DNA from: Treponema sp.
GTDB taxonomy: Bacteria; Spirochaetota; Spirochaetia; Treponematales; Treponemataceae
Assembly (NCBI GenBank): GCA_024682655.1
Contig: JAIKYZ010000027.1
Span: forward strand, 1,071-65,070
Reading direction: 5' to 3'
DNA: 64,000 bases
Positions 2 to 56,809 of this stretch are shown in pieces. Below the pieces are notes generated by a model. It was not told where the DNA came from. It did no database searches and worked only from the letters and a program-made list of their open reading frames with translations. Positions within the stretch are counted from its first letter, which is position 1. Each line of letters opens with the position of its first letter. The position numbers and the translations under genes are program-made.

Positions 2-3000
2 GTATATGCAATTCTTGATGAAGTAGTAAAAGAGCATCCGGTTATGCTTAACCGTGCGCCTACACTTCACCGTCTTGGTATTCAGGCATTTGAACCTGTA
101 CTTGTAGAAGGAAAAGCTCTTAAGCTTCACCCACTCGCATGTAAGGCCTTCAACGCCGACTTCGATGGTGACCAGATGGCTATCCACGTACCTCTGACTC
201 AGGCAGCTCAGATGGAATGCTGGACCTTGATGCTTTCTGCAAGAAACCTTCTTGACCCAGCTAACGGTAATACAATCGTTGCTCCTTCTCAGGACATGGT
301 ACTTGGTATTTACTACATGACTGCTATTAAACCTAACGCAAAGGGAACCGGAAAACGTTTCAGTAATCCTGATGAAGTTAGAATGGCAGCTGAACTTGGA
401 AATATTGAATGGCAGGCTTTGATTAAAGTTCCTGCACCTAAAAAATCATTTGATGCAAATGCTCTTAAAGTAAAGAATGATGATGCCTTTACTCAGGGTA
501 ATCAGACTTTCGAAGAAGGTGAATTAATCGAAACTTCAGCTGGACGTCTTGCATTTAATGAAGCTATGCCAGAAGAAATTGATTATGTAAACCGCCAGAT
601 GTTTGATAAATCACTCAAGAAGATGATTGAACACGTTTATCATACAAAAGGTTCTTGGATTACAATCAAAATGCATGATGCTATCAAGGATGTTGGTTAT
701 AAAAACGCTACATTCTACGGTGCTACAATTTGTATCGATGATATTCTTGTTCCTGAAGAAAAAAAGAAGATGGTTGATGATGCAAATAAGCAGGTTGATG
801 ACATCATTGGAAAATACAGTAGAGGTATTATTACTGCAGAAGAAAGATATAACACAATCTTAAGTGTTTGGAATAAGACTAACGAAGACCTTACAAAGAT
901 AATGATGAGTAAGCTTGAAAAAGATAAGCAGGGCTTCAACACTATCTGGACAATGGCCAACTCTGGTGCCCGTGGTTCTCGTGGTCAGATTTCTCAGCTT
1001 GCTGCAATGCGTGGTTTGATGACTAAACCTAACGGATCAATCATCGAACTTCCTGTTAAGGCTAACTTTAAGGAAGGTCTTAACGTGATGGAATACTTTA
1101 TTTCTACTAACGCTGCCCGTAAGGGTCTTTCTGATACCGCTCTTAAGACTGCCGATGCCGGTTACATGACTCGTCGTCTTGTTGATGTTGCTCAGGATGT
1201 AGTAGTAAATGAAGAAGACTGTCGTACAATCAACGGTATTGATTACGCCGCTATTAAAGATGGTGATGATATTAAAATTCCTTTAAGCAAACGTATTGAA
1301 GGCCACTTTACAATTGAACGCGTTGTTCACCCAATTACAGGTGAATTACTTTGCGATGTAAATCAGTACATTGATGAAAACTTAGCAAAGAAAATTGAAG
1401 CCGCTGGTGTAGAAAAAGTAAAACTTAGAACTGTACTTACTTGTGAAGCTAAACATGGTATTTGTGTTCGCTGTTATGGTAAGAACCTTGCTCGTAATAA
1501 GATTGTTGAAATTGGTGAAGCAGTTGGTATTGTTGCAGCTCAGTCAATCGGTCAGCCTGGTACACAGTTGACACTTCGAACATTCCACTCTGGTGGTGCT
1601 GCCGAAATGTCTACAGATGATACAAATATTGTTCTTAAGTTTGATGCATTTATCACTGATATCAAAGGTAAGAGTGTTACAACTAAGAAGGGTTATGAAT
1701 TATTTACTCGTAAGGGTCAGATGACTGTAATCCGTATTTTGGATCAGGTTGCTCTTGAAAAAGGTGATAAACTTCTTATTGAAGATGGAAAGAGCCTCAT
1801 GAGAGGAACAGCTTTAATTTCTAGAGCTGGAAAAGATATTGAATCAAAAGTTACAGGTAAAGTTCTTGTAAAAGATGATGTTGTTTATATCGTAAGTAAA
1901 GAACAGAAAATCGAAATTGCAAATGGTTCTACAATTTACGTAAAAGCTGGTGATTTAGTTAAAAAATCAGTTCCAATTGGTGAATTTGAACCTTACTCAG
2001 AACCTATAATTGCTGAAAATGATGGTTATGTACACTTTGAAGACATTATTGTTGGTTCTACTCTTGATGAAAAGAAAGATAATGTTTCTGGTGCAATTGA
2101 ACGTACAATTTCTGGTTTACACCTTGATGTTAAACAGCCACGTATTCTTATTACAGATGAAGCTGGTAACGAATTAGGTACTTATTACCTTCCAGAAGGT
2201 GCTGTACTTAAGGTTGAAGATAAAGCCGCAGTTGAGAAGGGTATTACACTTGCAACTATTCCTAAGGCTGCTCAGAAAACAAACGATATTACTGGTGGTC
2301 TTCCACGTGTATCTGAATTGTTTGAAGCTCGTAAACCTAAGAATCCTTGTGTACTTGCAAAGATTTCTGGTACTGTTAAATTCGATGGTATCAACAAAGG
2401 TAAGCGTAAGGTAGTAGTTGAAGATAAGTTCGGTCAGAAGTATGAACATTTAGTACCAATGGCTAAACGTATGATCGTTCGTGATGGCGACCAGGTAGAA
2501 GCTGGTGAACAGCTTTGTGCAGGATCTCCAAATCCACAGGACGTACTTGCAATCCTTGGTGAAAATGCTTTACAGAATTACTTAATGGATGAAATCCAGT
2601 CTGTATATAGCGCACAGGGTGTAGATATCAATGATAAACATATTGGAATTATCGTTCGTCAGATGCTCCGCAAAGTTGAAATCGTATCTGTAGGTGATAC
2701 AAAATTCATCTTTGGTCAGCAGGTTGATAAATATAAGTTCCACGAAGAAAATCAAAGAGTTATTGCTGAAGGTGGTAAACCTGCTATTGGTCATCCAATG
2801 TTCCAGGGTATTACTAAGGCTTCTCTTGGTGTTGATTCATTTATTTCTGCAGCATCATTCCAGGAAACAACTCGTGTTCTTACAAATGCAGCTATTTCTG
2901 GAGCAACAGATGGACTTCATGGTATCAAGGAAAATGTTGCAATTGGTCATATGATTCCTGCCGGAACTGGTATTAAGGATTACAAAGATGTAAGACTTTT

Positions 3001-3121
3001 TGATGATACTGATAAGGATCTTGATTTACAGATGAATGAGATTCTTGAAAAACGTCGTCAGGAAGAAGAACTTGAATCTCAACATGAAGAAACAAGTTAT
3101 GAATCAGAAGAAAATGACTAA
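2..3121 (+). CDS. rpoC: RNA polymerase beta' subunit, 5'-truncated by the window edge
   Basis: [10 protein letters not shown] catalytic motif, [13 protein letters not shown] trigger loop, [13 protein letters not shown]; frame is open upstream of the ORF-track start at 44. Confidence 0.99.
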
Positions 3122-3349: not shown

Positions 3350-3724
3350 ATGCCTACAATTAATCAATTAATCCGTCAGGGTCGTAAAGCGGCAGCTAAC
3401 AGAACCAAGTCTCCCGCACTTGATTCATGCCCTCAGAAACGTGGAGTTTGTACACGTGTTATGACTCAGACACCTAAGAAACCAAACTCAGCATTGAGAA
3501 AGATTGCTCGTGTTCGTTTGTCAAATGGTATTGAAGTAACTGCATACATTCCAGGTATTGGACATAACTTGCAGGAACACTCAGTAGTTTTAGTACGTGG
3601 TGGTCGTGTTAAGGACCTCCCTGGTGTACGTTATCACATTATTCGTGGTACAAAAGATACTCTTGGCGTTGAAGATCGTAAACGCGGTCGTTCAAAATAT
3701 GGTGCTAAGAGACCTAAGGCTTAA
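3350..3724 (+). CDS. rpsL: 30S ribosomal protein S12
   Basis: [11 protein letters not shown] and [11 protein letters not shown] motifs. Confidence 0.99.
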
Positions 3725-3736
3725 TGGAGGACTAAG

Positions 3737-4207
3737 ATGGGAAGACATAAGAAATCAATCGAACGTCCATTGATGCCGGATGTAAAATATAACAGCAAAG
3801 TAGTTTCAAAATTAGTTTGCCGTATGATGTTAGATGGAAAAAAAGATACTTGTCAGAAAATTGTTTATGAAGCAATGGATAAGTTAAAGGCTAAGACTGA
3901 CAAAGATCCTTTGGAAGTTCTTCTTAAGGCTCTTGATAATGTAAAACCAATGGTTGAAGTTAAATCTCGCCGTGTTGGTGGTGCTACATATCAGGTTCCA
4001 ATGGAGATTCGTGAATCACGTCGTGAAGCTCTTGCAATGAGATGGGTTATCGAAGCTGCAAGAAACAGATCTGGTCACGGTATGGCTGATACACTTGCTT
4101 CTGAATTATTAGATGCATTTAATAATACAGGTACAGCTTACAAGAAACGTGAAGACGTTCATAAGATGGCTGAAGCTAACAAAGCTTTTGCTCATTATAA
4201 GTGGTAG
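3737..4207 (+). CDS. rpsG: 30S ribosomal protein S7
   Basis: [15 protein letters not shown] and [12 protein letters not shown] motifs. Confidence 0.99.
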
Positions 4208-4288: not shown

Positions 4289-5350
4289 ATGGCTGATGTA
4301 ATTGTTCGCCCTGTTAAATTGGACGATGCTTGTGATCTTTTGAAAATTTATTCACCCTATGTAGAAAATACGGCTGTCAGCTTTGAATATGAAACTCCAG
4401 GTCTTGAAGAATTTAAGGAGCGGATTAAAAACATTACTCAAAAGTTTCCTTATTTAGTTTTATGTAAAGATAATGAAATTCTCGGTTATACCTATGCGTC
4501 TACTTTCCATGCTAGAGCAGCTTATAATCATAGTGTTGAGCTTTCTATATATATAAGAAAAGATTGTCATAATTGTGGATATGGAAGAATTCTTTATAAC
4601 AAACTGGAAGAAGAATTAAAAAAGAAAGGTTTTTTAGTAATGTATGTCTGTATTGCTGCAAGTTCCAGAAATCCAGACAAAAATCTTACTGATGCCAGTA
4701 TTAAATTTCACGAAAAAATGGGATTTAATAATGCTGGATTTTTTAAGAATTGTGCTAAAAAATTTGGGTGTTTTTATAATATTGTTTATATGCAGAAAAA
4801 TATTTCTTCCGAATTTCAAGATAATGAAAAAACAATAGATACAAGTGAAGTTGTTGATGTTTATGACAATCAAAAACGGGTAACAGGAAAAACTATTCAG
4901 CGAAGTGATTTTTTTGAAAATAATGGACTTTTAAGACTTGTTATTCACCTTTGTATTTTTAATAAAGAAGGAAAAATGTTAATTCAGCAAAGGGCTTCTT
5001 CTAAAAAAACTGGTGCAAATATCTGGGATTTTTCGGTTAGTGGACAAGTAATGGCCGGGGAAAGTTCACAAGAAGGGGCTCAGAGAGAATTAAAAGAAGA
5101 GTTGGGTATTCTTGCGCAAATTTCTCAGGCTCCTCAATTTACTAAAATCTTTTTTAACAGTTACAACGATTATTATGTCCTTCATTTGGATTGTGATCCT
5201 GTAAATCTTAAGTTTAAAAAGGATGAAGTTCAGGATGTAAAATGGGCTTCAAGAGAAGAAGTTTTAAAATTAAGAGAGAAAAATAAATTTCTTTCATATC
5301 CTGAATCATTAATAGGATTGGTTTTTGATATTGGTCAGGGCAAAGATTAA
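4289..5350 (+). CDS. GNAT (phosphinothricin-acetyltransferase/YncA-like) N-acetyltransferase fused to a Nudix hydrolase
   Basis: N-half resembles Pat/YncA (TAVSFEYETP, ELSIYIR, GYGRILY, SIKFHEKMGF); C-half carries an exact Nudix box GQVMAGESSQEGAQRELKEELGI; SD GAGG upstream. Confidence 0.85.
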   Translation: MADVIVRPVKLDDACDLLKIYSPYVENTAVSFEYETPGLEEFKERIKNITQKFPYLVLCKDNEILGYTYASTFHARAAYNHSVELSIYIRKDCHNCGYGRILYNKLEEELKKKGFLVMYVCIAASSRNPDKNLTDASIKFHEKMGFNNAGFFKNCAKKFGCFYNIVYMQKNISSEFQDNEKTIDTSEVVDVYDNQKRVTGKTIQRSDFFENNGLLRLVIHLCIFNKEGKMLIQQRASSKKTGANIWDFSVSGQVMAGESSQEGAQRELKEELGILAQISQAPQFTKIFFNSYNDYYVLHLDCDPVNLKFKKDEVQDVKWASREEVLKLREKNKFLSYPESLIGLVFDIGQGKD

Positions 5351-5377
5351 AAAAGTCAAAAATGCTTTACCAACCTA

Positions 5378-5406
5378 TTGCATAAAAACTTTAAAAAATA
5401 TATAAA
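5378..5406 (+). promoter_or_regulatory. sigma70 promoter driving the tuf leader and tuf
   Basis: TTGCAT-N17-TATAAA. Confidence 0.7.
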
Positions 5407-5411
5407 TAAAA

Positions 5412-5876
5412 TAATACTCTTTAAATTAAGGGTTTACTATCTGCTTTTACGCAGAATTGGGTTCTTTGAGAAGACAGGCGGATTTATTCCGGTGCGACCG
5501 TAAAGTTAATCAGAAATGATTTTCAGGGAGGCGGCCCATGATTAAAGTAATTTGTTACCGTTGGTAATAATTATAGATAAACTTGATTTTGGGTTTCTGT
5601 CAGCCTTTAAGGCAAAACTCGAAATACCAAACCAAGTTGTCAAAATGTTAGAGATAACGAAAGGTGGTTACGGGTTTGAATCATTCCGAATTGATGGAAT
5701 GATAAATAATTTCTAATCTGTAAACTAATCTAAAATCTCTAATAATAGCAAATATTGTGTCTGCGAATGTGATGTTTCTTAGTGAAGAAATGTCTCATTC
5801 TGGCTTAAAGTGCAACACATAAAAATAAGTAAAGCCAGAAAAAGAAGAAAAAAAAGTTTCTGGCAAGGAGACAAAC
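5412..5876 (+). ncRNA. candidate long structured 5' leader or ncRNA upstream of tuf
   Basis: ~465 nt with no long ORF and many hairpins (GAAA and GAGA tetraloops); no tRNA/tmRNA/RNase P signature recognised. Confidence 0.5.
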
Positions 5877-7061
5877 ATGGCAAAGGAGAAGTTCGTTAGA
5901 ACTAAACCTCACATGAACGTTGGTACTATTGGTCACGTTGACCATGGTAAGACTACACTTTCTGCTGCTATCACTACATATTGTGGAAACAAATATGGTG
6001 ATAAAGTTCTTAAGTATGATGAAATTGATAACGCTCCAGAAGAGAAGGAACGTGGTATTACTATCAATACTCGTCACTTGGAATATCAGTCTGATAAGAG
6101 ACACTATGCTCATATCGACTGTCCAGGACATGCTGACTATATTAAGAACATGATTACTGGTGCTGCTCAGATGGATGGTTCTATCCTCGTAGTTTCTGCT
6201 CCAGATTCAGTTATGCCACAGACACGTGAACACTTGTTGCTCGCACGTCAGGTAGGTGTACCAAAGATCATCGTTTTCTTAAACAAAGTTGATATGGTTG
6301 ATGATCCTGATCTTCTTGAACTCGTAGTAGAAGAAGTAAAAGATACTATTAAAGAATATGGTTTCCAGGAAGACACTCCAATTATTAAGGGATCTGCTTT
6401 CAAAACATTGAACGACCCAGCTCCAGAAAACACAGCTTGTATCGAAGAACTTCTCCAGGCTATGGATACATGGTTTGATGATCCAGTTCGTGATGATCAG
6501 AAACCATTCTTGATGCCAATTGAAGACATCTTTACAATTTCAGGACGTGGTACTGTAGTAACAGGTAAGATCGAACGTGGTGTTGTAAATATGAACGATG
6601 CTGTACAGATCGTAGGTATCCGCCCAACAGCTGATACAACTGTAACAGGTATCGAAATGTTCCAGAAGACTCTTGATCAGGGTATGGCTGGTGATAACGT
6701 TGGTATCCTCCTTCGTGGTATTGAAAAGAAAGATGTTGTTCGCGGACAGGTTCTTGCTGCACCAAAATCTATCACTCCACACACAAAGTTCGAAGCTCAG
6801 ATTTACGTTCTTTCAAAGGAAGAAGGTGGACGTCACTCACCATTCTTCACTGGATATCGCCCACAGTTCTACTTCAGAACTACAGATATTACAGGAACTA
6901 TCGAACTTGAAGCTGGTACAGACATGGTAAAACCAGGTGATAACGTAAAAGTTATCGGTGAACTTATTCACCCTATCGCTATGGACGAAGGTCTTAAACT
7001 TGCTATCCGTGAAGGCGGTCACACAATCGCTTCTGGACAGGTAACAAAAATTATTGAATAG
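5877..7061 (+). CDS. tuf: elongation factor Tu
   Basis: [25 protein letters not shown]; SD AAGGAG. Confidence 0.99.
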
Positions 7062-7080: not shown

Positions 7081-7110
7081 AAAAGGGCTGGTTATTTAAT
7101 CAGTCCTTTT
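7081..7110 (+). terminator. weak terminator/attenuator hairpin between tuf and rpsJ
   Basis: AAAAGGGCTG/CAGTCCTTTT stem, short T tail. Confidence 0.5.
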
Positions 7111-7132
7111 GTATCGCAATAGGAGTATAGAA

Positions 7133-7441
7133 ATGGCTAATGGAAAGATTCGTGTCAGACTTCGCGCATTTGACGTAGAGTTGATCGATCAGAGTGCTAA
7201 AGCCATCGTGCAGACTGTTCAGAAGGCTGGGGCAAAGGTTTCAGGACCTATCCCACTTCCAACAAAAATTAATAAGGTAACAGTATTGCGTTCACCTCAC
7301 GTAAACAAAAAGTCACGTGAGCAGTTTGAAATGCGTACTCACAAACGTCTTATTGATATTATGAACCCATCACAAGAAGTAATGGATTCATTGATGAAAC
7401 TTGAACTTCCTGCCGGTGTTGATGTAGTAATCACACAGTAG
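7133..7441 (+). CDS. rpsJ: 30S ribosomal protein S10
   Basis: [23 protein letters not shown]; start moved to the ATG after SD AGGAG. Confidence 0.99.
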
Positions 7442-7451
7442 TGAATTAAAA

Positions 7452-7557
7452 TGCCTGACCTTTATGGTTGGGAAAAGGGTACGGTCCCCTTGGATCTGGG
7501 ATGACGGCCTAAATTAATTTAATGGAATGATGGTAAGTAATTACCAGTCACTTCCAT
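7452..7557 (+). promoter_or_regulatory. structured intercistronic element before rplC (candidate r-protein leader)
   Basis: GC-rich stems plus the hairpin ATGGAA-TGA-TGGTAA-gtaa-TTACCA-gTCA-cTTCCAT ending just before the SD. Confidence 0.5.
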
Positions 7558-7573
7558 ATAGGAGAATATCAGA

Positions 7574-8194
7574 ATGAAAGGTCTGATTGCTAAAAAAGTT
7601 GGCATGACACAGATATTCGACGAAAGCGGTAATCTTACACCAGTAACCGTGATCCAGGTCGAGCCTAATGTTGTTGTTGCCAAGAAAACAAAGGAAAATT
7701 GCGGTTATGATGCAGTAGTTCTTGGTTTAGATGATATGAAAGCTTCTAAAGCAAGTAAAGCATATGCCGGTCAATTCCCAGAGAACATCAATCCAAAACG
7801 TCACTTGAAAGAGTTCCGTAGCTTTGAAAAGGACGTTAATGTTGGAGATGAAATTGGTCTTGAACTTTTTGAAGGTACACGTTTCTTAGACGTAACTGCA
7901 ACTTCAAAAGGTAAAGGTTTCCAGGGTGTTATGAAGAGATGGGGCTTCCATGGTGGTCGTGCTACTCATGGTTCTAAATTCCATCGTGAGCCAGGTGGTA
8001 CAGGTGAATGTACAACACCAGGACACAGTTTCAAAAATATTAAATTACCTGGAAGAATGGGATTCAAACGCGTAACAATTCAGAATTTGAAAGTAGTAAA
8101 AATTGATCCTGAATTGAAAGTAATTATGGTACGTGGTGCAGTTCCTGGAGTTAAGAATTGTACTCTTATCGTTAAGTCCGCAGTTAAGAAATAG
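7574..8194 (+). CDS. rplC: 50S ribosomal protein L3
   Basis: KKVGMTQIF, SKGKGFQGVMKRWGF. Confidence 0.99.
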   Translation: MKGLIAKKVGMTQIFDESGNLTPVTVIQVEPNVVVAKKTKENCGYDAVVLGLDDMKASKASKAYAGQFPENINPKRHLKEFRSFEKDVNVGDEIGLELFEGTRFLDVTATSKGKGFQGVMKRWGFHGGRATHGSKFHREPGGTGECTTPGHSFKNIKLPGRMGFKRVTIQNLKVVKIDPELKVIMVRGAVPGVKNCTLIVKSAVKK

Positions 8195-8204
8195 GAGATA
8201 GAAT

Positions 8205-8843
8205 ATGGAAAAGAAAGTATATTCAACTTCTGGAAAAGAGCTGCGTACAATTAATCTTGATGATAAAGTATTCGGTCTTCCAGTAAATGATGACGTAATC
8301 TATTATGCAATTACAAATGAATTAGCTAATAAACGTGTTGGTACAGCTTGTACAAAAACACGCAAAGAAGTTCACGGAAGTAATAACAAACCTTATAAAC
8401 AGAAGGGTACTGGTAATGCTCGTCGTGGTGATAAGAAATCTCCTATCACAGTAGGTGGTGGTACAATTTTTGGACCAAAACCAAGAGATTTCTCTTACTC
8501 AATTCCTAAAAAGGAAAAGAGACTTGCTATGATGACAATTTTAAGTGCTCACGCACAGGGTGATAGACTTACTGTTGTTGAAGATTTTACTATTGATAGT
8601 GGTAAAACAAAGGATTTAGTAAAGATTCTTAATAATTTTGCTAAAGATGAAAAGACAGTATTAATCTTGAAAGATGATGATTCAAAAGTAAAACAGGCAG
8701 GACGTAATATTCCTAACCTTACATTCCTTTCTTATAACCGTCTTAACGCTCATGATTTATATTATGGACGCAAAGTTGTAGTTATGGAAAGCGCAGTTAA
8801 ATCTCTTTCAGATTTCTATGCTAATGATAAGGAGGCTAAATAA
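8205..8843 (+). CDS. rplD: 50S ribosomal protein L4
   Basis: KPYKQKGTGNARRG, GGGTIFGPKPRD. Confidence 0.99.
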   Translation: MEKKVYSTSGKELRTINLDDKVFGLPVNDDVIYYAITNELANKRVGTACTKTRKEVHGSNNKPYKQKGTGNARRGDKKSPITVGGGTIFGPKPRDFSYSIPKKEKRLAMMTILSAHAQGDRLTVVEDFTIDSGKTKDLVKILNNFAKDEKTVLILKDDDSKVKQAGRNIPNLTFLSYNRLNAHDLYYGRKVVVMESAVKSLSDFYANDKEAK

Positions 8844-9127
8844 TGAATTACGAAGATATTCTTATTGAACCTGTTGTATCAGAAAAAGCAAGTGCTTTAC
8901 GTGAACAGAATAAATATGTATTCATCGTACAGCCAAGTGCAACAAAAACTCAGATTAAAGAAGCTGTTGCACGTATGTTTAAAGTAAAAGTTGTCGGCTG
9001 CACAACAATGAATGTGCTTGGAAAAATGAAACGTCTTCGTGGTAAACCAGGACGTACTTCTTCATACAAGAAAGCAATCGTTCGCCTTGCAGAAGGTGAA
9101 ACAATCGCTGTGTTTGAAGGTGTTTAA
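8843..9127 (+). CDS. rplW: 50S ribosomal protein L23
   Basis: PVVSEKA, YKKAIVRL; operon position. Confidence 0.98.
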   Translation: MNYEDILIEPVVSEKASALREQNKYVFIVQPSATKTQIKEAVARMFKVKVVGCTTMNVLGKMKRLRGKPGRTSSYKKAIVRLAEGETIAVFEGV

Positions 9128-56694: not shown

Positions 56695-56736
56695 ATAAAA
56701 AAATCGGGACTTTATTAAAAGCCCCGATTTTTTTTT
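56695..56736. terminator. bidirectional terminator between the cNMP-kinase gene and the tRNA
   Basis: A-run, AATCGGG.CTTT/AAAG.CCCGATT stem, T-run. Confidence 0.85.
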
Positions 56737-56809
56737 GATCCTAATGCGAGTCGAACGCACGACCTTTCGCTTAGGAGGCGAATGCTCTATCCAGCTGAGC
56801 TACAGGATC
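56736..56809 (-). tRNA. tRNA-Arg(CCT)
   Basis: reverse complement GATCCTGTAGCTCAGCTGGATAGAGCATTCGCCTCCTAAGCGAAAGGTCGTGCGTTCGACTCGCATTAGGATCA folds to a cloverleaf, anticodon CCT; CCA not encoded. Confidence 0.96.

Follow-up and report, generated by a model that had tools for sequence, protein, structure and literature searches.

The window analysed here is a 64,000-nucleotide (nt) stretch of a Treponema genome (contig C70:1071-65070 of a 2.74-Mb, 151-contig assembly), and the element in question is the leader of tuf, the gene for EF-Tu. It occupies positions 5413-5876 of the + strand, between a gene encoding a GNAT-NUDIX fusion (4289-5350, +) and tuf itself (5877-7061, +), in the product of which the EF-Tu domains were found. 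The leader is non-coding and has its own conserved promoter. That it is a real structured RNA on the + strand, with approximately 12 helices of which most are supported by covariation, is near certain, and it constitutes a single-copy, Treponemataceae-wide family tied to tuf. The promoter and the translation start lie as follows:

5378..5406, + strand: sigma-70-type promoter read from the sequence, with -35 TTGCAT (5378-5383), a 17-nt spacer and -10 TATAAA (5401-5406)
5865..5879, + strand: Shine-Dalgarno AAGGAG (5865-5870) and tuf start codon ATG (5877-5879), from sequence, EF-Tu domains and alignment

The other genes placed around the leader are:

44-3121: rpoC, on the 5' side of the leader
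3350-3724: rpsL, on the 5' side of the leader
3737-4207: rpsG, on the 5' side of the leader
7109-7441: rpsJ (S10), 3' of tuf and second gene of the operon
7574-8194: rplC, 3' of tuf
8205-8843: rplD, 3' of tuf
8843-9127: rplW, 3' of tuf

The usual order in relatives is rpsL, rpsG, a terminator, a gap of 520-710 nt, and tuf. The GNAT acetyltransferase-NUDIX fusion open reading frame (353 amino acids) stands between rpsG and the leader here and in two of the 17 relatives examined, and is an insertion at this place; in the other relatives examined, rpsG is directly followed by its terminator and the leader promoter. From the classical rpsL-rpsG-fusA-tuf order, fusA is missing in the Treponemataceae genomes examined, and the leader stands where E. 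coli has fusA. On the other side of tuf, the rpsJ-rplC spacer (7442-7573) is, at 132 nt, unusually long for this operon.

An earlier note on this DNA, made from the sequence alone, had proposed a TTGCAT-N17-TATAAA promoter upstream of tuf with neither a transfer RNA (tRNA) nor a long open reading frame in between. The promoter is present and its spacing is conserved: the form TTGnnn-N17-TATAAT is kept in almost all of 79 aligned relatives, where it mostly stands after the rpsG terminator hairpin, and TTG and TATAA(A/T) recur with the same spacing in relatives from other genera. A simple consensus scanner missed it owing to a threshold effect. Transcription is predicted to start near 5413. A tRNA and transfer-messenger RNA (tmRNA) scan found neither in the leader region, and the only open reading frames in the leader are two of 41 and 54 amino acids, with TTG starts and no conservation. 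No intrinsic terminator was predicted within 5200-6000. Two further readings of the sequence were rejected. A nine-codon upstream open reading frame, MIKVICYRW (5538-5567), has an ATG that is not conserved, most relatives reading CCCUU-G or CCCUA-A; and TGGCTTAAAGTGCA, read as a sigma-54 promoter, has a GG-to-GC spacing of 10, not the 12 that is the rule for such promoters.

The + strand of 5412-5876 folds with a minimum free energy of -122.5 kcal/mol, as compared to -93.7 (standard deviation 6.1) for dinucleotide shuffles (z = -4.73; none of 100 shuffles as good), and the - strand folds more weakly (z = -3.3). The main alignment comprised 79 Treponema sequences of <90% identity, 30-60% identical to the window. 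In it, the promoter hexamers, a 13-nt block GGGTTCTTTGAGA, GTAAA, TTCAG, the loop CGTTG, CCARACC, GGTGG and, in the 3' domain, a run of 34 nt are near-invariant or fully invariant, and the stems between these invariant blocks vary in sequence. RNAalifold returned 61 pairs from the same sequences, 38 of them with compensatory double changes. Standard pairs fill 94.5% of the cells, against 38-48% when the partners are slid by 1-3 columns, with double changes in 751 cells, the slid controls having 108-194, and a covariation score of 0.458 against approximately 0.10; none of 500 shuffles matched any of the observed measures. Many of the pairs are G-U, which become C-A mismatches on the opposite strand, and the functional strand is therefore that of tuf. 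When the central domain (72 sequences, five from other genera) and the 3' domain were aligned on their own, paired cells amounted to 89.8% versus 29-51% when slid, and 88.1% versus 30-53%, respectively. Because MAFFT dealt poorly with the middle region, anchor-based permutation tests were used there. The orthologous upstream regions, for which a lack of conservation or covariation had been named in the earlier note as evidence against its proposal, thus display the opposite.

From 5' to 3' the model consists of P1, a single-stranded BoxA, the P2 four-way junction, M3, M4/Pd, Pe, a 52-nt G-poor linker, the three-way Pf domain and a terminal hairpin:

5440..5455, + strand: P1, small 5' hairpin UCUGC-UUUUAC-GCAGA just 5' of BoxA; a hairpin of variable sequence stands there in most relatives
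5459..5471, + strand: BoxA-like element GGGUUCUUUGAGA, unpaired in the model; near-invariant in the 79 sequences and kept in other genera
5473..5601, + strand: P2, long-range helix GACAG (5473-5477) / CUGUC (5597-5601), closing a four-way junction of Pa, Pb/Pc and M1/M2
5479..5491, + strand: Pa, hairpin CGGA/UCCG; 5/5 pairs changed on both sides
5492..5532, + strand: Pb/Pc, stem with asymmetric internal loop GUAAA (5500-5504), the pair G5505-C5524 and hairpin Pc (5508-5521)
5534..5594, + strand: M1, long irregular helix 5534-5545/5583-5594, enclosing M2 and an A-rich joiner
5550-5571, + strand: M2, hairpin with conserved loop C-GUU-G, inside M1
5603..5613, + strand: M3, hairpin GCCU/AGGC; pairing kept as the sequence varies, judged by eye with no statistical test
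5615..5677, + strand: M4 (5615-5621/5671-5677), enclosing Pd (5626-5629/5665-5668 and 5636-5641/5653-5658); covariation
5680..5703, + strand: Pe, hairpin with conserved loop GAA..AU; 8/8 pairs changed on both sides
5704..5755, + strand: linker, poorly conserved, unstructured, G-poor and AU-rich
5756..5819, + strand: Pf 3' domain, closing helix UGUGU.UGC/GCA.ACACA and covarying hairpin branch 5765-5800
5834..5865, + strand: terminal hairpin GCCAGAAA/UUUCUGGC, abutting the Shine-Dalgarno; 5/6 pairs changed on both sides

The long-range helix P2 co-varies as CAG/CUG, CGG/CCG and UUGG/UCAA, and its complementarity is 4.43 with the own partner against 3.89 (standard deviation 0.07) with permuted partners, a value reached in none of 2000 permutations. 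Within the junction, all 12 pairs of Pb/Pc are changed on both sides while GUAAA is invariant, and G5505-C5524 is replaced by A-U in three relatives (L088, L118 and L140). The permutation tests gave 0.794 versus 0.538 for M2 (own value reached in 0/1000) and 0.622 versus 0.567 for M1 (2/1000). M4/Pd is the most widely conserved section of the leader; it contains the near-invariant internal loops CCARACC and GAUGAU.GGUGGU, and its GGUGGU block pairs in cis with ACCA, a pairing supported by covariation. Covariation support is lacking for the M3 hairpin and for the helix that closes the 3' domain, the latter having been predicted from invariant bases. The 3' domain holds a genus-invariant stretch, UUCUGGCUUAAAGUGCAACACAU, in place of which other genera have AUUAUAAUAC. 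Some loops carry insertions: in one relative (L043:2404-2963) the apical Pd loop has gained approximately 60 nt, and in others the loops of Pa and Pc have gained 20-40 nt; the loops can thus be enlarged and probably face the solvent.

Most of the stems that had been drawn by eye in the earlier note are borne out by covariation, i.e. CTGC/GCAG (P1), CGGA/TCCG (Pa), AATCA/TGATT (Pc), TTACC/GGTAA (M2), TCATTCC/GGAATGA (Pe) and GAATG..TTTCTT/AAGAAA..CATTC (the Pf branch). Two others, the long stem ACTTG...CAAGT and the hairpin GTTA-GAGA-TAAC, occur in the single-sequence minimum free energy fold, and the comparative data instead give M1 (5534-5545/5583-5594) and the Pd helix 5636-5641/5653-5658 in their place. 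The GCCTT/AAGGC stem stands as hairpin M3, by eye kept with varying sequence. The suggestion that GNRA loops make tertiary contacts is unsupported, because the GAAA loop of Pc is not conserved.

The window was searched with the covariance models of Rfam 15 at the gathering score, and 5250-5950 was searched again permissively (E ≤ 10). At the gathering score the leader matches no family, the sole match in the window being a tRNA at 56736-56809, and the permissive search returned only chance matches of the small nucleolar RNA type below 20 bits. There was no match among these models to riboswitches, RNase P, tmRNA, 6S, SRP, OLE, GOLLD, HEARO, ROOL, raiA or the ribosomal-protein leaders, and the impression in the earlier note that tmRNA, RNase P and T-box signatures are missing was upheld. 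No prior description of this RNA was found in the literature searched. Several candidates were rejected individually. A T-box leader would stand before aminoacyl-tRNA-related genes and have a Stem I with a specifier loop, as well as a T-box sequence whose antiterminator competes with a terminator; there is no RF00230 match even at E ≤ 10, GGUGGU pairs in cis within Pd, and there is no terminator. An E. coli-type S10 leader (the L4-interacting RNA) would precede rpsJ and not tuf, and its hairpins HD/HE would end in an intrinsic terminator; again there is no terminator in 5200-6000 and no Rfam match. The S7-interacting str RNA, which belongs between rpsL and rpsG and resembles the 16S binding site of S7, is set aside in that the leader stands 3' of rpsG, separated from it by a terminator and provided with its own promoter, and has no 16S similarity. 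A partner in trans for the invariant 3' block was likewise rejected, since, over the whole genome, the 11-12-mers complementary or identical to it were met in coding contexts with no relation to the leader.

The leader is bound to tuf throughout the family. With blastn, matches were obtained in 18 of 25 genomes of the genus (own genome counted), and all those for which tuf was located lie immediately upstream of it. An exact-pattern scan of public genomes with an invariant 22-mer gave at least 120 loci, almost all from Treponema and each with a tuf-type start codon and ribosome-binding site not more than approximately 80 nt away; the carriers include the gut and rumen group T. bryantii, T. porcinum, T. 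ruminis and T. zioleckii, and also T. socranskii. The leader was also seen in 'cleanbin' assemblies labelled Lachnospiraceae, Desulfovibrionaceae, Paratractidigestivibacter, Bacteroidaceae, Parabacteroides distasonis and Anaerobutyricum (L023, L028, L035, L059, L080 and L089), and since these records carry a Treponema-specific leader they are probably mislabelled or mis-binned.

Two covariance models were used to follow the leader further, R1 built on the 3' domain and R2 on the central domain. R1 gave one match each in 16 genomes of the genus, none in G189, and only weak matches in other genera; five of the six weak matches were confirmed upstream of tuf, and the sixth (G135) lies on a short contig on which tuf was not found. 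In five loci from other genera that were read through, rpsG, the terminator, promoter, hairpin, BoxA, Pa, CGUAAAG, M1/M2, M4/Pd, Pe and the linker are all kept, the 3' domain is diverged and a small hairpin remains at the Shine-Dalgarno. R2 matched exactly once per genome in 164 of 201 Treponemataceae genomes (121 of the 128 of high quality; 21 of 24 genera), and 22 of 22 further matches lie directly upstream of tuf. At the order and phylum level there were 37 and 17 matches, all in Treponemataceae, and none in the other Spirochaetota families sampled. In genera g29 and g37 the 5' domain is reduced. The extreme case is the 1.14-Mb, single-contig g37 genome G067 (L223, C1:203700-204900), in which, of the leader, nothing but the Pd hairpin GAUGCCAAACCAGUCAUC...GAUGGUGUUCAGGUGGGUCC is left, flanked by GC-rich sequence and approximately 220 nt before tuf, and in which the gene 5' of tuf is not rpsG. 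The proposal of an undescribed cis-regulatory RNA or large non-coding RNA at the head of the tuf-S10 superoperon is hence sustained by family-wide conservation, covariation, linkage to tuf and the lack of an Rfam match.

In one rival reading, an independent, stable non-coding RNA could be made from its own promoter, or by processing, and act in trans, with tuf expressed mainly from a downstream start or processing site. The size and complexity of the RNA are nearer to those of large non-coding RNAs than to those of leaders, a weak promoter or a site of processing might lie in the AU-rich linker (5704-5755), and a single hairpin survives alone in G067. Against this, no terminator separates the RNA from tuf, the alignment contains no second conserved promoter, structure and conservation continue to the Shine-Dalgarno, and position and orientation relative to tuf are constant in every genome examined where tuf was located. 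An RNA of this independent kind is accordingly held to be improbable.

The 3' part of the leader has features that could be regulatory. The linker contains 17% C and 9% G, as compared to 16% C and 26% G in the remaining leader, and C exceeds G there in 76 of 83 sequences; it is a weak candidate for a Rho entry site. Downstream of it, the 5' arm of the terminal hairpin, GCCRGA, can alternatively pair with the genus-invariant UCUGGC (5799-5804). In this alternative helix 88.6% of the cells are paired versus 31-47% when slid, and the inner four pairs are kept at 97-100%. The terminal hairpin and the UCUGGC helix fit the pattern expected of mutually exclusive helices, which does not amount to proof.

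Such an arrangement would also suit a large or tandem riboswitch, sensing translational status through a guanine nucleotide, an alarmone, a polyamine or a metal ion and gating Rho or the ribosome. Many invariant unpaired nucleotides within covarying helices, a multi-helix junction and mutually exclusive helices at the ribosome-binding site are what such an RNA would offer, and the combination of no intrinsic terminator with an unstructured, G-poor linker recalls Rho-dependent riboswitches. However, the leader precedes one gene and has one copy per genome, unlike metabolite riboswitches, which as a rule act at several loci; it is 2-4 times the size of known aptamers; it resembles no riboswitch in Rfam, and the gene context points to no ligand. 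A riboswitch is for these reasons regarded as very unlikely.

The block GGGUUCUUUGAGA at 5459-5471 relates the leader to ribosomal RNA (rRNA) operons. Its core GUUCUUUGA is identical to that of the organism's own rrn-leader BoxA, GUUCUUUGACA. The block matches the gamma-proteobacterial consensus GYTCTTTAANA (PMC5725501) at 10 of 11 positions, and it shares the core UCUUUGA.A with the NusB-binding AUGAUCUUUGAAA of B. subtilis, the E. coli counterpart of which is UGCUCUUUAACA (PMC13753749). NusB binds directly to the B. subtilis BoxA, which a small 5' hairpin immediately precedes (PMC13753749). A corresponding layout is found in the tuf leader, with the promoter, the hairpin CUGC..GCAG and then GGGUUCUUUGAGAagaCAGG; the BoxA begins approximately 46 nt past the predicted start and is single-stranded in the model, between P1 and P2. 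Contigs C69 and C70 of the same genome end at 16S genes, and in their rrn leaders the promoter is followed by the hairpin GUCGC..GCGAC and then by GUUCUUUGACAgauCAGGGAAGG or GUUGUUUGACA. The rrn leaders of relatives have the same promoter-hairpin-BoxA layout. Those of this genome were located at:

C69:7500-7756, C70:92400-92698 and C43:~4487: rrn leaders with BoxA GUUCUUUGACA, or GUUUUUUGACA in the C43 copy

In a relaxed genome-wide BoxA scan, the intergenic matches of which were inspected by eye, the hairpin-plus-BoxA layout occurs only in two rrn leaders and in the tuf leader, the other intergenic matches being mostly T-runs. The genome encodes NusB (123.9 bits), a Rho RNA-binding domain (116.1 bits, in a 589-amino-acid frame) and S10. 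BoxA is kept in genera in which the 3' domain has diverged, which speaks against its being retained only for pairing with that domain; a pairing of BoxA (CUUUGAG) with the invariant CUUAAAG of the 3' domain was rejected, as the other genera keep BoxA and replace the latter block by AUUAUAAUAC. A conserved GGGAAGG(A)AA box was also observed 5-7 nt 3' of the rrn BoxA, across Treponemataceae genera and in the tRNA-23S spacer, where a congener carries a BoxA upstream of its 23S gene, in the form GAUCUUUGACA...GGGAAGG; this box may be a lineage-specific counterpart of boxC.

Taken together, the leader represents an uncatalogued, Treponemataceae-specific RNA family, and it is judged rather likely to form the 5' leader of the tuf-rpsJ-rplC-rplD... 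messenger RNA as a multi-domain, cis-acting and BoxA-loaded element, in which a function of BoxA is probable. NusB-S10 (S10 being NusE) would bind the emerging BoxA as it does on rRNA leaders and tether the leader to RNA polymerase. Two outcomes may follow. The polymerase could become resistant to Rho over the long untranslated leader and the ~15-kb operon, or initiation of tuf translation could be repressed, as for suhB and lambda N; the latter would provide S10 feedback, because rpsJ is the second gene of the operon. The domains downstream of BoxA probably bind a further factor, either a ribosomal protein or a small molecule, which would bias the terminal hairpin against the UCUGGC helix and thereby set access to the ribosome-binding site. 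Loading of Nus factors at BoxA together with a sensor controlling the tuf ribosome-binding site would be the best-supported mechanism, the part beyond BoxA being inferred. Precedents exist for several of these steps. BoxA-mediated autorepression of suhB has been shown, BoxA elements are predicted 5' of rpsJ or of the first gene in rpsJ-containing operons, NusE is probably BoxA-autoregulated in diverse species, and lambda nutL represses translation of N from approximately 200 nt by RNA looping to polymerase (PMC5725501).

Several observations weigh against a BoxA-loaded leader with a switch at the ribosome-binding site. BoxA makes up only 13 of the ~465 nt and lies approximately 400 nt from the Shine-Dalgarno, farther than in known cases of repression. 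It does not track the rrn BoxA of its own genus, as exemplified by g18 with GAUAUUUGACA in rrn and GUUCUUUGAGA in tuf; across the family the rrn forms are GAUAUUUGACA, GGUCUUUGAUA and GUUCUUUGACA, and those of tuf GUUCUUUGAGA or AUUCUUUA(A/G)(G/A)A, with the U-rich core in common. As the block is short, U-rich and does not follow the rrn form, recognition by the same protein is plausible, not demonstrated. Further, RNAalifold pairs its UCUUU with GGAGA of the Shine-Dalgarno, all five pairs being invariant or nearly so; this probably reflects generic complementarity of U-rich and purine-rich segments and is kept as an alternative only. In G067 little of the leader is left and no BoxA can be recognised. 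In the linker C outweighs G to a modest degree only, the alternative UCUGGC helix has one-sided transitions only and no two-sided covariation, and no rRNA mimicry beyond 8-9-mers was found by a fuzzy block search and blastn-short against congener 16S, internal transcribed spacer (ITS) and 23S sequences.

The pairing with the Shine-Dalgarno is at the same time a point in favour of a classical autogenous leader, in which L4, L3, L23, S19 or another such ribosomal protein, or S7, would bind an rRNA-like site (e.g. the loops of Pd) and repress translation, the BoxA-like block being a structural or anti-Shine-Dalgarno element and no Nus site. The leader does head a ribosomal-protein operon, has near-invariant internal loops within a covarying hairpin, and has counterparts in the E. 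coli S10 and str operons, which are controlled in this manner (PMC3616713). Conversely, its conserved blocks bear no resemblance to congener 16S, 23S or ITS, the leader exceeds known ribosomal-protein leaders several-fold in size, its 5' block agrees with BoxA and stands in a BoxA context, and the pairing with the Shine-Dalgarno is generic, spans 400 nt and is without covariation. Such autogenous control thus appears a minor possibility, and one that does not exclude Nus loading at BoxA.

A broader interpretation, in which the Nus-loaded leader would be a miniature rRNA-like platform, is more speculative. It would fold co-transcriptionally into a compact particle, bind S10 together with other ribosomal proteins, EF-Tu or a nucleotide signal, and in this way integrate the status of ribosome assembly and gate the whole tuf-S10-spc-alpha superoperon through Rho and the ribosome-binding site. 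As a whole, this scheme is considered unlikely.

EF-Tu and the S10/spc/alpha proteins form the core of translation, and their control outside gamma-proteobacteria and Firmicutes is largely unknown. If the assignment to a BoxA-loaded cis-acting leader is correct, the RNA would be among the largest and most intricate cis-acting bacterial leaders and, as far as the searched literature and Rfam show, the first described for tuf. It would show, in a distant phylum, BoxA/Nus control reaching beyond rRNA to the main superoperon of ribosomal proteins, and render the proposed BoxA autoregulation of S10 (NusE) directly testable. As a family-wide element the leader is also a lineage-specific marker, covering genera that appear to hold oral and pathogenic treponemes, and the covariance models and helix map provide a basis for an Rfam family, structure probing and the identification of partners.

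Among known systems, the rrn BoxA leader, on which NusB-S10, NusG, NusA, SuhB and S4 act, shares with the tuf leader the succession of promoter, small hairpin, single-stranded BoxA core UCUUUGA and long structured RNA. In the tuf case, however, BoxA precedes a 400-nt leader and protein-coding genes, and the GGGAAGG box of Treponemataceae rrn leaders is absent. As in the autoregulation of E. coli suhB, that proposed for rpsJ-nusE and that of lambda nutL-N, BoxA stands in the 5' untranslated region of a Nus-factor operon; unlike the suhB-type elements, which were sought ≤50 bp from the start codon in gamma-proteobacteria, it is here approximately 400 nt away, with a dozen helices in between, in Spirochaetota. 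The E. coli S10 leader is likewise a structured cis leader of the S10 ribosomal-protein operon, and acts on both transcription and translation (PMC3616713), but that RNA is only ~170 nt long, lies directly before rpsJ, has an intrinsic terminator and is confined to gamma-proteobacteria, the group within which the S10 (L4) and the str (S7) leader of E. coli both have a narrow distribution (PMC3616713). Finally, OLE, GOLLD, HEARO, ROOL and raiA resemble the tuf leader in their length of several hundred nt, many covarying helices, invariant unpaired bases and restricted range; these RNAs are free-standing genes, whereas the tuf leader is fixed in the 5' untranslated region of one gene.

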